From the NCBI GenBank assembly GCA_019058295.1, contig JAHPZI010000028.1, positions 96,001 through 160,000 on the forward strand: a DNA stretch of 64,000 nucleotides, written 5' to 3'. How positions within the stretch are numbered: the first letter of the stretch is position 1; each line of letters opens with the position of its first letter. A program made the translations under genes and the position numbers. Positions 24,322 through 39,289 of the stretch are shown here, piece by piece. The DNA comes from Promethearchaeota archaeon. Lineage in GTDB: Archaea > Asgardarchaeota > Lokiarchaeia > Sigyniarchaeales > SOKP01. Under the pieces are notes generated by a model, which did no database searches, was not told the DNA's origin, and saw only the letters and a program-made list of their open reading frames with translations.

Positions 24322-25578
24322 ATGACAGTTCTAACTAATGATGATATTAGTTATATTACGAGGATACTGTTATTATTGAATGATAATATTAAAGATTCCT
24401 CTGTCTCTCGTCAAGGTCTCTCTAAACGCATGGATATGAACCGTAATTATCTTGAGGATTTACAAAAAAGAACAGGCAAGTACGATCAATACATTAAATT
24501 TTTTGATTTAGCCATAAACATTCTCTTAATTGATAAAGATAATTTCAAGTTCAAATCTAAAACACATTACGAGAGATTTAGGGAAGGTTCTTTAGAGCTA
24601 ATATTTCAAGAGATGGTTAGAAAAGGTGTTTATTCGGATGAACTAGTTATCAATTTACAAAAAGCTCAATTTAAAGCTATAAATTATACTCTTTATGCGT
24701 TAACAAAAGCTATGTATAATAAGTTTTCTGAAGATGAGCTCAATCAATTGAAAGAAGGACGGTCCAATAAATTTTTATATTCAATGACTCGGCTTAGTAA
24801 TGATATTGGGGGAGTGGAAACTCTCTCCCAGACTTTGCGTTATGAAATGTTTATAACCCCTGAGAAGATTGCTCTAATTAAATCAATAATAAATCAGTAT
24901 GAGGCATTTGCGTTTGATGAATGTAGATATGCTAAAGAATTAATGGAGGAGATCCCAAGATTAAGAACTAGTAAACGTTCTGCATATATCGGAAGAACAT
25001 CTCATCCAATTTTAGAAAATTTTTTCAGAAAAGTGTGGATCTTAAAGATGAAGATACGATCCAATCACGAATTTGAATTTAATAAACCTAGAAGTAACCA
25101 TAGAATAGATACTTTCTTAGATGTTAGAAATCAGAAGCAATTAAAAGACTTATTAAAAATCTCTTCTGACAAATCTTTAAAGAATTATAAGACATTGTTT
25201 ATTGATTATATTATCCCCTCTTTAAAAGCTCTAAAAAAATGTGTTTTTAGTAAGTTAAGTCCTGATAAACATTATCTTGCTAAAGATCGTGCTTTAATTA
25301 TTGTTTTCTATAGTTCCTATAGCGATAAAATCTTTGAAGAAATAGAGAAACTACTCAATAAGTCGAGTATTCCATATAAAAATAATGTTAGATTCATAGA
25401 TATAATGGATTTTGCTGATTTGTTTAATCTTGATGAATTAAATATTCAGAGATTAAAAGATATAAATAGGATAATCAAGGATGCTATGCTGGGGAATGAT
25501 AAATCTTTAGAGACTCTAGAAGCTATGTCTAATTCTGCTTTATATGAACTTAGTAGAGCTGATAAAAGAAAGAGCTAA
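24322..25578 (+). CDS. Hypothetical protein, possible HTH plus degenerate PD-(D/E)XK domain
   Basis: 418-aa ORF; H..LE...E....RID...IDY pattern. Confidence 0.45.
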   Translation: MTVLTNDDISYITRILLLLNDNIKDSSVSRQGLSKRMDMNRNYLEDLQKRTGKYDQYIKFFDLAINILLIDKDNFKFKSKTHYERFREGSLELIFQEMVRKGVYSDELVINLQKAQFKAINYTLYALTKAMYNKFSEDELNQLKEGRSNKFLYSMTRLSNDIGGVETLSQTLRYEMFITPEKIALIKSIINQYEAFAFDECRYAKELMEEIPRLRTSKRSAYIGRTSHPILENFFRKVWILKMKIRSNHEFEFNKPRSNHRIDTFLDVRNQKQLKDLLKISSDKSLKNYKTLFIDYIIPSLKALKKCVFSKLSPDKHYLAKDRALIIVFYSSYSDKIFEEIEKLLNKSSIPYKNNVRFIDIMDFADLFNLDELNIQRLKDINRIIKDAMLGNDKSLETLEAMSNSALYELSRADKRKS

Positions 25579-25771
25579 CCAAGAAAATTTTTCTTAATAA
25601 TTAGTGTTTTCTAAATTAGGATAAAATCACTAATCTTTATATTTCTTTATTATATATTAAATTAGTTCCATAATATTCTAAACATTTATTAGAACTAAAT
25701 ATATAAGTGATAAAGGATTTTTGATATGATAAAGAAGAATACAATATTAACGAAATATAAATATTGCCAGC

Positions 25772-25883
25772 GCCAGCGTATAAAACTTATAGTTAATATA
25801 AGTTTACGCAACCGAGTAGTAAGGAGGCGGCCTGCAGAGCCGTTGCGCAAGCAGCGTGGGTGCAAATCCCACCGCTGGCTCCA
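25772..25883 (+). tRNA. tRNA-Cys(GCA) with intron 25782-25811 (position 10/11) and long variable arm; CCA encoded
   Basis: Acceptor GCCAGCG/CGCTGGC, U73 plus CCA; anticodon arm GCGGC-CTGCAGA-GCCGT; T arm GTGGG-TGCAAAT-CCCAC; D stem TCCG/AGGA forms only after intron removal; adjacent to cysS. Confidence 0.9.
25782..25811 (+). other. 30-nt tRNA intron with relaxed bulge-helix-bulge (HBh') motif
   Basis: 4-bp helix GCGT/ACGC, 3-nt bulge ATA, 9-bp intron stem AAACTTATA/TATAAGTTT, 3' site AA|C. Confidence 0.82.
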
Positions 25884-25935
25884 TTTTATTAATAAATAAG
25901 TAGTTTAAACTTGATTTTTTGGTGATCTCAATATT

Positions 25936-27369
25936 TTGATGGTTTATAATAGCTTGACATTCCAGAAAGAGGAATTCAAAACAATCAAACCAAATGAAGT
26001 TCTAATGTATGTCTGTGGTCCCACGGTGTATGATAGCCCTCATTTGGGGCATGCTAAATCTGCTGTTGCTTTTGATCTTGTCCATCGTTATTTAAAGTTC
26101 AAAGGCTATAATGTGAAATTAGTAAAGAATTATACTGATATTGATGATAAAATAATACAAAGAGCAAATGAAAGGAACATAGATTTTAATTCATTAAGCG
26201 AGCAATATATAAAAGAATACGAGGATATCATGAATGCTTTAAACGTCGAAAAGGATTATATGAATCCACGAGCTACGGAAACCATCGATTTTATGATTGA
26301 AGTAATTCAAGGATTAATCAAAAATGAGCATGCGTATGAAAGAAATGGTTCTGTATATTATTCTGTTAAAACTTTTCCAAAATATGATTCGATATTTCAG
26401 AATGTAAAAAAAGGAGAGATACACGATGAAAATGAGGATATTGAAGATCAGGATATTGCCTATGGAGATGATAAAGAAGATCTCCGAGACTTTGCATTGT
26501 GGAAAAAACACAAAGAAGGAGAACCTTATTGGGAAAGTCCCTGGGGTAAAGGTCGCCCTGGATGGCATATTGAATGCTCGTCCATGTCAGTTAATATATT
26601 AGGTGAAACTCTTGATATCCATGGAGGAGGTCAAGATTTAAAATTTCCACATCATCGAAACGAAATAGCTCAATCAGAAGGGTATACAGGAAAGAAATTT
26701 GCAAATTATTTTATGCACAATGGCTTTGTTAATGTAGATGATGAAAAAATGTCAAAAAGCCTCGGAAATTTCTTTTTAGTTTCGGAGGTTATAAAAAATT
26801 ACGACCCAATGGTAGTAAGACTATTTCTATTTTCAAGCCATTATCGAAGTTCTATCAATTATTCTTTAGACAATATGAATCAAGCTAAAAAAAACTACAA
26901 TAGGCTTTTAAGTACTATTAGAAATATCCACGAGCTAAATATAAAAGATATTTCTTCTAAAAATATTAAAGAGTTGATTTTAGAAATCGAAAAGGCAGAA
27001 AAATCAATTATCGAAGCTATGGATGATGATTTTAATACTCCCATTGCTCTTGCTGAGTTCTTAGGATTATTTAGAGTAATAAACAGAGAAGTATTAGAAA
27101 ATAAAGTACCTATTAATAAAGATTTCAAGGATAAATTCTTTAATTTTGTAGATAATATGAATAAGATATTTGGTTTATTTCCAAATCTAAAAAGCCAATT
27201 AACACTAGGGGATGAGGTATCTCTTGATGAAAAGGGAACTACTATTCAGAATTTATTGAAAATTATTTATGATGTTAGAGCAGAGCTGAGAACCCGAAAA
27301 ATATATGACTTAAGTGATAAAATCCGTGATAAATTAAAAGAATTAGGCATTAATATTGAGGATAAATGA
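25936..27369 (+). CDS. cysS: Cysteine--tRNA ligase (possible true start ATT at 25933)
   Basis: YVCGPTVY, HLGH, DFALWK, GRPGWHIECS, FPHH.NE, KMSKS. Confidence 0.97.
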   Translation: MMVYNSLTFQKEEFKTIKPNEVLMYVCGPTVYDSPHLGHAKSAVAFDLVHRYLKFKGYNVKLVKNYTDIDDKIIQRANERNIDFNSLSEQYIKEYEDIMNALNVEKDYMNPRATETIDFMIEVIQGLIKNEHAYERNGSVYYSVKTFPKYDSIFQNVKKGEIHDENEDIEDQDIAYGDDKEDLRDFALWKKHKEGEPYWESPWGKGRPGWHIECSSMSVNILGETLDIHGGGQDLKFPHHRNEIAQSEGYTGKKFANYFMHNGFVNVDDEKMSKSLGNFFLVSEVIKNYDPMVVRLFLFSSHYRSSINYSLDNMNQAKKNYNRLLSTIRNIHELNIKDISSKNIKELILEIEKAEKSIIEAMDDDFNTPIALAEFLGLFRVINREVLENKVPINKDFKDKFFNFVDNMNKIFGLFPNLKSQLTLGDEVSLDEKGTTIQNLLKIIYDVRAELRTRKIYDLSDKIRDKLKELGINIEDK

Positions 27370-38347: not shown

Positions 38348-39289
38348 ATGCTCAATGAAGACGAGATTTTTAGGGAGAATTACAGAAAAATAAGATTAAT
38401 ATGCCCAAGATGTGGAAAAGAGAAGTTCTTGAAAATTCCCATGGAACTGACTAACCATAGTGAAAATATAACAACAATTTCAATTCCCTCTGATTTTGTA
38501 TGCGAACACAGCTTTCAGGCGTTTATAGATAAAAATTTTGCCGTAAGAGCATATCATAATGCCGATTTTGAAATTACTAAAATCGAATTCTATGAAACTG
38601 AATCTATAGATAAGGAAGGGATTGTATCCTATACATTATCCCAATTAATAAAAAATATTGTTGAGATTTTAAGAGAATCATTAATAGATAAAGAAATTTT
38701 AGGGAGTGCAATATTTAATTTAGAAGGAAAAGTAATGTATTCTTCATTACCTGATGAAATCTTTGTAATTATGGCAAGCCAACTAGAGCAAATGGAGAAA
38801 AAGCAACCAATTAATATAAAACAAACAATATTGTTGTTAGAAAATAACCAAAAAATATATTCAACAATAGTTCAACTTAAAGAGATCACTTTAAATCTTG
38901 TTTTGCTTATGTCTTCTGAGCTTAATTTAACTGAAGCGAATAGTTATTTAGAAAATTTAATCGTCAAAATTATCGATTTAGATCGTCCTAAAAAAAAAAT
39001 AGCTAAAATAGTTAAAAAAGATAAAAAATTAGAACAACCACCAAACCAATTTTGGATCTATTCTAAGGTGAACTATTCCTCTTCAAAAAATGGTGATAGG
39101 GTCTATATTGATTCTTTAGGCATTAGAGTCTTGAAATCAGTTATCGTTAACCTTGATGATATTAAAGATAATCCAGAATTTGAGGGAAAAATTTATTTTA
39201 CGCAAAAATACGTCAATTTAATGCAAGGATTAGCATTAACCCTTAAAGATGCGGCAAGTTTTTTGAATAAATTAAATAAAATGCCTTAA
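38348..39289 (+). CDS. Zn-binding domain plus roadblock/longin-like domain protein
   Basis: CPRC...CEHSFQAFIDKNFAVR.Y; ILGSAIFNLEGKVMYSSLP. Confidence 0.65.
   Translation: MLNEDEIFRENYRKIRLICPRCGKEKFLKIPMELTNHSENITTISIPSDFVCEHSFQAFIDKNFAVRAYHNADFEITKIEFYETESIDKEGIVSYTLSQLIKNIVEILRESLIDKEILGSAIFNLEGKVMYSSLPDEIFVIMASQLEQMEKKQPINIKQTILLLENNQKIYSTIVQLKEITLNLVLLMSSELNLTEANSYLENLIVKIIDLDRPKKKIAKIVKKDKKLEQPPNQFWIYSKVNYSSSKNGDRVYIDSLGIRVLKSVIVNLDDIKDNPEFEGKIYFTQKYVNLMQGLALTLKDAASFLNKLNKMP

Follow-up and report, generated by a model that had tools for sequence, protein, structure and literature searches.

The window analysed here, a 64,000-nt stretch of contig JAHPZI010000028.1 from a Promethearchaeota archaeon (Lokiarchaeia), carries a tRNA-Cys(GCA) gene that is interrupted by an intron close to its acceptor stem, preceded by a second copy of its own 5' acceptor strand and followed by the gene for its cognate synthetase. 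The features of this locus are as follows.

25697..25736, + strand: AT-rich upstream element, the TATA-like AAATATATAAG and then GTGATAAAGGATTTTTGATATGATAAAGAA; kept in L003, L012, L123 and L125, and partly in L162
25766..25772, + strand: leader heptamer GCCAGCG, a copy (mimic) of the 5' acceptor strand, which pairs 7/7 with 25873-25879
25772..25781, + strand: 5' exon, tRNA nucleotides 1-10 (GCCAGCGUAU); nucleotides 5-8 (25776-25779) are the 5' strand of the BHB central helix
25782..25811, + strand: 30-nt BHB intron at position 10/11, identified with a strict BHB scan and ARAGORN
25812..25883, + strand: 3' exon, tRNA nucleotides 11-76, with the anticodon GCA at 25834-25836
25936..27369, + strand: cysS, cysteinyl-tRNA synthetase (PF01406, 416 bits), starting 52 nt 3' of the tRNA

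An interrupted tRNA-Cys gene with a duplicated acceptor strand

The heptamer GCCAGCG occurs twice, at 25766-25772 and at 25772-25778, in registers shifted by 6 nt, such that G 25772, which is G1 of the tRNA, is common to both. UAU follows the second heptamer, CCGAG opens the 3' exon, and the gene ends with the 3' acceptor strand CGCUGGC (25873-25879), U73 (25880) and an encoded CCA (25881-25883). The discriminator U73 is the main identity element for cysteinyl-tRNA synthetase and is kept in all tRNA-Cys orthologues. The splice motif consists of a 4-bp central helix between GCGU (25776-25779) and ACGC (25806-25809), with one bulge, AUA (25780-25782), cut after 25781, and the other, AAC (25810-25812), cut after 25811. 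Within the intron, a perfect, AU-rich inner helix of 9 bp (25783-25791 with 25797-25805, loop 25792-25796) precedes the ACGC strand and the closing AA. Because the central helix is built from tRNA nucleotides 5-8, this motif and the normal acceptor stem cannot coexist. Joining U10 to C11 restores the D-stem and yields the exact mature tRNA.

Neither ARAGORN nor the Rfam models at gathering score reported a tRNA on the unspliced window. At a permissive threshold, the Rfam tRNA model (RF00005) scored 27.1 bits on 25802-25880, against a gathering score of 29, with an alignment that covered the D-arm, anticodon arm, T-arm and 3' acceptor strand and left the 5' strand mispaired; the score remains below threshold because the 5' acceptor strand is displaced. 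Once 25782-25811 was removed, ARAGORN recognized a complete tRNA-Cys(GCA) of 82 nt. Splice solutions were enumerated with a strict BHB scanner whose criteria were an inner helix of 3 bp or more, a central helix of 4 bp and, on the 3' side of each central strand, a 3-nt bulge cut after its second base; every candidate splice product was passed to ARAGORN. Exactly one solution survived, the intron at 25782-25811. With an outer helix of 0 bp and an inner helix of 9 bp, the motif takes the relaxed HBh' form and does not meet the strict hBHBh' definition. The first-pass annotation, made from the letters alone, had proposed the cloverleaf without 25782-25811, the intron at 10/11 with cut sites AT|A and AA|C, the recruitment of nucleotides 5-8 into the central helix and the complementarity of the second GCCAGCG to the 3' acceptor strand, and had warned that standard finders could miss the gene; all of this holds.

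Comparison with orthologues shows that the gene and its intron are real and, apart from the intron position, ordinary for this lineage. Intronless tRNA-Cys orthologues score 52-59 bits against the Rfam tRNA model. One of them, in genome G117, is nearly identical to the spliced gene of the window and has A10-U25 where the latter has U10-A25, which places the predicted splice-junction base in a covarying D-stem pair. Among intron-bearing orthologues, the inner helix of the intron has undergone compensatory changes (AAACUUAUA/UAUAAGUUU versus AAAUUUAUC/GAUAAGUUU), and the central helix a change from U-A to U.G (ACGC versus GCGC). In a related strain, 25737-25755 carries 5 differences and 25756-25853 is unchanged. 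Metatranscriptome contigs that matched 25500-26700, from small shares of three RNA-labelled runs, covered only parts of cysS and left the tRNA uncovered.

The order tRNA-Cys, then cysS, recurs in several relatives (for example, at L008 and L016), and a homologue search with the synthetase retrieved only distant bacterial and archaeal enzymes of 40-47% identity, uninformative on synteny and taxonomy. Between the two genes (25883-25936) lies GGTGAT, a motif resembling a ribosome-binding site. The AT-rich element at 25697..25736 is kept upstream of the orthologues that share the 6-nt shift and is a probable promoter or leader start, the promoter role being inferred. The variable region of the tRNA is 12 nt long (25843-25854) and forms a short hairpin, compared with 5 nt in many relatives. 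The T-loop reads UGCAAAU (25860-25866), and AG replaces the usual GG in the D-loop; in relatives whose T-loop is UUCAA, the D-loop carries GG, a pattern that suggests covariation of the 18:55 tertiary pair.

The leader copy accompanies the intron in tRNA-Cys genes

We surveyed three tRNA families (Cys, Val-GAC and Tyr) across 135 genomes of the same family as the window genome. A BLAST search with the 3' exon of the window gene matched tRNA-Cys in 95 of the 135 genomes, and 97 loci were fetched; by an exact-pattern scan, the matching genomes are Promethearchaeota (Lokiarchaeota) MAGs that come from several studies. An intron at 9/10 or 10/11 is present in nine complete tRNA-Cys genes from four genera, all nine of which have GCCAGCG upstream; a tenth such gene, L001, is truncated by a contig end and was left out of this count. 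Six of the nine show the arrangement of the window, with a 6-nt shift (GCCAGC-GCCAGCG). Two have a 12-nt shift (GCCAGCG-yCUUU-GCCAGCG), an intron at 9/10 and a central helix formed by nucleotides 4-7, and the remaining one has a 10-nt shift (GCCAGCG-UUC-GCCAGCG) and a relaxed motif. In L007 and L029, the central helix contains no more than 3 Watson-Crick pairs in the BHB that yields the conserved mature sequence.

Among the other 82 usable tRNA-Cys genes, none has an upstream heptamer able to pair with its own 3' strand. Ten of these 82 provide a natural control, carrying an intron of similar size at 15/16, with a central helix that uses D-stem nucleotides 10-13, and no leader copy. The first-pass annotation had named a relative that keeps the intron without the leader duplication as something that would refute its reading; such relatives were sought and none was found, the copy being present in 9/9 complete Cys genes with an intron at 9/10 or 10/11. 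The acceptor sequence GCCAGCG is common to all the Cys genes with this type of intron, leaving no compensatory variation within this one family.

The place of the intron varies among orthologous tRNA-Cys genes, which may have none, one at 9/10, 10/11 or 15/16, one in the anticodon loop or T-loop, or two at once (L014, L019, L021, L018, L022, L023, L030, L029, L145 and L157), showing rapid intron turnover within a single gene family.

The same arrangement in tRNA-Val and tRNA-Tyr

When the window genome was examined for tRNAs with two nearby upstream partners for the 3' acceptor strand, the only case beyond Cys was tRNA-Val(GAC) on contig C14. A further gene with an acceptor-proximal intron and a copy is tRNA-Tyr on contig C4.

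G000:C14:94496-94611 (L178:117-232): tRNA-Val(GAC) with a 29-nt BHB intron at 9/10
G000:C4, about 38380-38574, - strand: tRNA-Tyr with three introns (8/9, 37/38 and T-arm)

The central helix of the Val intron pairs CGCG (nucleotides 4-7) with CGUG. Its leader strand, GGGCGUG, lies upstream of GGGCGCG, by 13 nt in the window genome and by 13-14 nt across the genomes that have it, and is not identical to it, but pairs 7/7 with CGCGCCC by means of one G.U pair. Among 30 Val loci, intron and copy occur together in the window genome, G002 and G006, with differing intron sequences, and both are absent from G007 and 26 others, three of these 26 having D-loop introns. In G007, the Cys gene is identical to that of the window, yet Val has neither the intron nor the copy. 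For Tyr, the intron at 8/9 is 28 nt long, with a central helix of CCUC (nucleotides 3-6) and GAGG, and in the window genome CCCCUCU occurs twice, the copy lying 15 nt upstream of C1. Across 22 Tyr loci, the four with the 8/9 intron (window genome, G007, G092 and G106) all have CCCCUCU 14-15 nt upstream, with three different spacers in two genera, and the copy is found in none of the 18 genes without this intron.

Taken over the three families, a copy that pairs 7/7 is present in every one (16 of 16) of the genes whose intron lies at 8/9, 9/10 or 10/11 and whose central helix uses acceptor nucleotides 3-8, and in 0 of 127 genes without such an acceptor-invading intron, including 13 with D-loop introns. 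The copies lie 6, 10, 12, 13-14 or 14-15 nt upstream of G1. Acceptor sequences are unrelated among the three families, and in every case the copy corresponds to the gene that it precedes. The genomes, being related, do not count as independent samples, and the covariation argument rests on the three paralogous families. Even so limited, three families and at least five spacings argue for either repeated origin or long maintenance of the copy.

Loose scans for acceptor-proximal BHB motifs gave thousands of chance matches in coding DNA, so strict versions were used; these are blind to tRNAs with further T-arm introns, except where pairing by itself suffices to locate the 3' strand. The strict genome-wide scan of the window genome returned four loci with a nearby copy, namely, Cys, Val, Tyr and C2:86572; the latter, like the 26 strict-scan matches without a copy, is not tRNA-like. 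Within this genome, the copy is present in all three tRNAs with an acceptor-invading intron and in no other tRNA. A copy search that tolerated G.U pairs produced a single match, a T-run upstream of an intronless Tyr gene in L214, which we regard as an artefact. A tRNA-Sec(UCA)-like gene at G000:C30:102560-102700 combines an acceptor stem of 9 bp with a long variable arm and a D-arm insert, and has no leader copy.

Predicted folding of the precursors

The MFE fold of 25760-25883 (z = -3.0) places the upstream copy against the 3' acceptor strand and nucleotides 5-8 against the intron, and the predicted probability that the copy occupies the 3' strand is 0.92. We extended these predictions by partition-function folding to 11 precursors with 20-25 nt of leader. 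With the leader removed, so that the transcript starts at G1, the true acceptor stem formed with P 0.93-1.00 in 11/11 precursors and, as a result, the central helix was lost (P <=0.01). On this prediction, true acceptor stem and splice helix are mutually exclusive. In 10 of the 11 native precursors, the copy occupied the 3' strand (P >= 0.91), the exception being the window genome's own Val (0.25), where the true stem still wins (P = 0.74). The BHB helix itself was predicted in 5/11 native precursors, the four Cys precursors with the 6-nt shift and Tyr, at P(central helix) 0.95-1.00; scrambling the copy in these same five reduced this value to 0.07-0.71. In L007, L029, L026 and two of the three Val precursors, the freed 5' strand entered other pairings, and the BHB was not predicted.

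After in-silico splicing, the leader copy often remained the favoured partner of the 3' strand (P 0.6-0.96), so that a return to the true stem would need tertiary contacts, proteins or an irreversible RNase P cut. Secondary-structure energies alone, as modelled here, do not explain the switch back after splicing. A kinetic reading fits these predictions best, in which the BHB forms first, during transcription, and the 3' strand, emerging about 70 nt later, takes the free decoy and spares the splice helix.

A proposed role for the leader copy in splicing

Our preferred reading, to which we assign a probability of roughly 0.7, is that 25766-25883 encodes a functional tRNA-Cys(GCA) precursor in which the leader copy stands in as the acceptor strand during splicing and is later displaced and removed. 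The copy would pair with the 3' acceptor strand and leave nucleotides 5-8 free, so that the splicing endonuclease meets a BHB that stays formed; once the exons have been released and ligated, the copy would give way to the true 5' strand, and RNase P would then cut at G1, removing the copy. Alternatively, RNase P might cut twice, first before the decoy and then, after splicing, at G1, an order that we infer. The anatomy of the gene, its conservation and the strict co-occurrence of copy and acceptor-invading intron are direct observations, whereas transcription of the copy, its pairing in vivo, the order of processing and the need for the copy in EndA cleavage are inferred, with only folding predictions behind them. 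That the leader is a stand-in acceptor strand had already been suggested in the first-pass annotation; the idea gains from the comparison (16/16 versus 0/127) and from folding and remains unproven at the bench. As a model, the decoy is well supported by comparative data and lacks experimental proof.

A more general and more detailed version can be offered only tentatively, since we consider it slightly less probable than a coin toss. It holds that, in these archaea, an intron a few bases from the acceptor stem can persist only with a leader decoy, which would take the 3' strand during transcription, keep the splice motif open and offer RNase P a false first site, the order of events being a cut upstream of the decoy, splicing, strand exchange and the cut at G1. 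On this version, the position of the decoy, where intronless orthologues have exon 1, suggests that introns of this type are gained or fixed along with a duplicate of the exon, which would bear on how archaeal tRNA introns arise.

Could the copy instead be a neutral by-product of the way in which the intron arose, either as a tandem duplication of exon 1 or as an exon copy co-inserted with the intron, without any role in processing? The repeats do resemble tandem duplications, with periods of 6, 10, 12 and 15 nt, and some extend beyond the seven acceptor bases (GCCAGCGUU in L026, CCCCUCUUA in L225 and AGCCCCUCU in the window genome). The copy also sits at the G1 position of intronless orthologues: the decoy of L225 is colinear with exon 1 of its intronless orthologue L219, and that of L007 lies within 3 nt of the G1 position of L006, relative to a shared upstream element. 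Judging from these alignments, the decoy probably derives from exon 1 by a short duplication. Neutrality, however, sits poorly with the state of the copies, whose seven pairing bases are preserved in every one of the 16 genes, whereas orthologues have diverged in their spacers, flanks and intron loops, which suggests that the decoy is kept by selection. Moreover, the Val copy retains its pairing through G.U despite not being identical, D-loop introns of the same gene family never come with a copy, and copy and intron are jointly absent in close relatives, as in the Val gene of G007. We regard a purely neutral copy as unlikely.

Slightly less probable again is a function of the copy at another step, such as positioning or delaying RNase P, marking the transcription start or checking the 5' end, without enabling formation of the BHB. 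If the copy and the 3' strand formed a helix that stacks on the T-arm, the result would look like a substrate for RNase P with its cut site 5' of the copy, an inference from the recognition of acceptor/T minihelices. TATA-like elements are found upstream of the copy, at a distance of about 25-37 nt. Such a role nevertheless leaves unexplained why the copy is restricted to genes whose central helix uses acceptor bases, and the copy is absent from about 120 other genes with the same promoters, and from genes with D-loop, anticodon-loop or T-loop introns.

Three other interpretations of the repeat were considered and rejected. The upstream copy is not the true exon 1 of a gene with a longer intron, given that no U8 follows it in Cys with the 6-nt shift, in Tyr of the window genome or in L007, and no BHB adjoins it. 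It is not the outer helix of a strict BHB, as it lacks complementarity to the start of the 3' exon. Finally, it is not an attachment-site repeat of an integrated element (cf. PMC3293823), because the repeats are only 6-15 nt apart with nothing between them.

Relation to known tRNA processing systems

The archaeal splicing endonuclease reads only the local shape of the RNA, which allows introns almost anywhere in a tRNA. Near the acceptor stem, the splice shape has to compete with the strongest helix of the tRNA. Asgard tRNA genes are heavily interrupted, and their D-arm introns are systematically missed by tRNAscan-SE (bioRxiv 10.64898/2026.10.13.758758). The intron described here resembles other non-canonical archaeal BHB introns, such as those of Thermoproteales and the Asgard D-arm introns, in its 4-bp helix and two 3-nt bulges cut after the second base (Marck and Grosjean 2003, Sugahara 2008), as well as in its length of about 30 nt with a hairpin, its invisibility to standard finders and the presence of two EndA paralogs in the genome. 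It differs from them in its position at 10/11 (8/9 and 9/10 in Tyr and Val, respectively), in a central helix made of acceptor bases and in the leader copy that is always present. D-arm introns were already known; the new part is the leader decoy that is strictly linked to acceptor-invading introns. The open-access text of the 2026 Asgard census, of Valentin-Alvarado et al. 2024 and of two reviews of archaeal tRNA introns does not mention a leader element or a duplication of the acceptor strand, and the processing of precursors with acceptor-proximal introns is not addressed in the open-access text of the reviews or the 2026 census.

Split and permuted tRNA genes (Nanoarchaeum equitans, Caldivirga, Cyanidioschyzon) likewise rely on sequence outside the mature tRNA to supply pairing for the splicing endonuclease (PMC4090602, PMC4033280); in those genes, the BHB itself arises from pairing between the flanks, whereas here the leader would engage the mature 3' acceptor strand as a substitute, which frees the true 5' strand to enter the BHB. 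By analogy, the arrangement may also be compared to RNA switches, such as attenuators and the expression platforms of riboswitches, in that two partners would compete for one strand and a processing event would decide between them. Unlike in those switches, no ligand or ribosome would be involved, the trigger being excision of the intron and the output, the order of maturation. In Methanopyrus kandleri, RNA-seq indicates that end trimming precedes intron removal (PMC3695527). RNase P, EndA and ligase would take part in both cases, but here an early cut at G1 is predicted by folding to lock the precursor in an unsplicable form, so that either the order is reversed or RNase P acts twice.

If our reading is correct, the conserved leader decoy would represent a new kind of cis-acting element in tRNA maturation. 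It makes testable whether folding of the precursor sets the order of splicing and 5' trimming, why acceptor-proximal introns are rare, and whether intron gain is tied to local duplication. From a practical standpoint, a duplicated acceptor strand is a simple flag for tRNAs that gene finders miss.

Processing machinery and a second tRNA-Cys gene

The window genome encodes an archaeal RNase P RNA (131 bits) and two EndA paralogs (201 aa, 28% identical, each with an N- and a C-terminal domain), encoded in the regions G000:C1:121142-121372 and C26:58847-59095. This pair is compatible with an (alpha-beta)2 enzyme, although its quaternary structure and specificity are undetermined. According to PMC5829648, (alpha-beta)2 and epsilon2 EndA are the only types that cut non-canonical introns.

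An intronless tRNA-Cys(GCA) gene is also present in the window genome, at G000:C22:33015-33090, so that the interrupted gene need not be essential there. That the interrupted gene is merely a decaying pseudogene, with tRNA-Cys supplied by this second copy, is nonetheless highly improbable: four genera retain gene, intron and leader copy, the intron helix has undergone compensatory changes, the discriminator U73, the anticodon GCA and every stem are retained, the place before cysS is kept, and the gene is identical in G007, where neither a comparable array nor a second tRNA-Cys was found. The first-pass annotation had counted another intact tRNA-Cys, with this one unexpressed, among the findings that would refute it; such a gene does exist, but the conservation of the interrupted copy speaks for its maintenance. 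No second, array-type tRNA-Cys was found in G007, G004, G139 or G120 (completeness 99, 91, 84 and 92%, respectively), and the interrupted gene is probably the sole tRNA-Cys of these four genomes.

The intronless gene belongs to an array of 27 intronless tRNA genes for most amino acids, encoded on both strands of G000:C22:30303-33335 (L179:2300-5400). This array is patchily distributed among relatives: its identity is about 91% in G005 and about 70% in both G003 and G009, and it was not found in G007 and others. Many of the dispersed tRNA genes of the window genome have introns, whereas those of the array do not.
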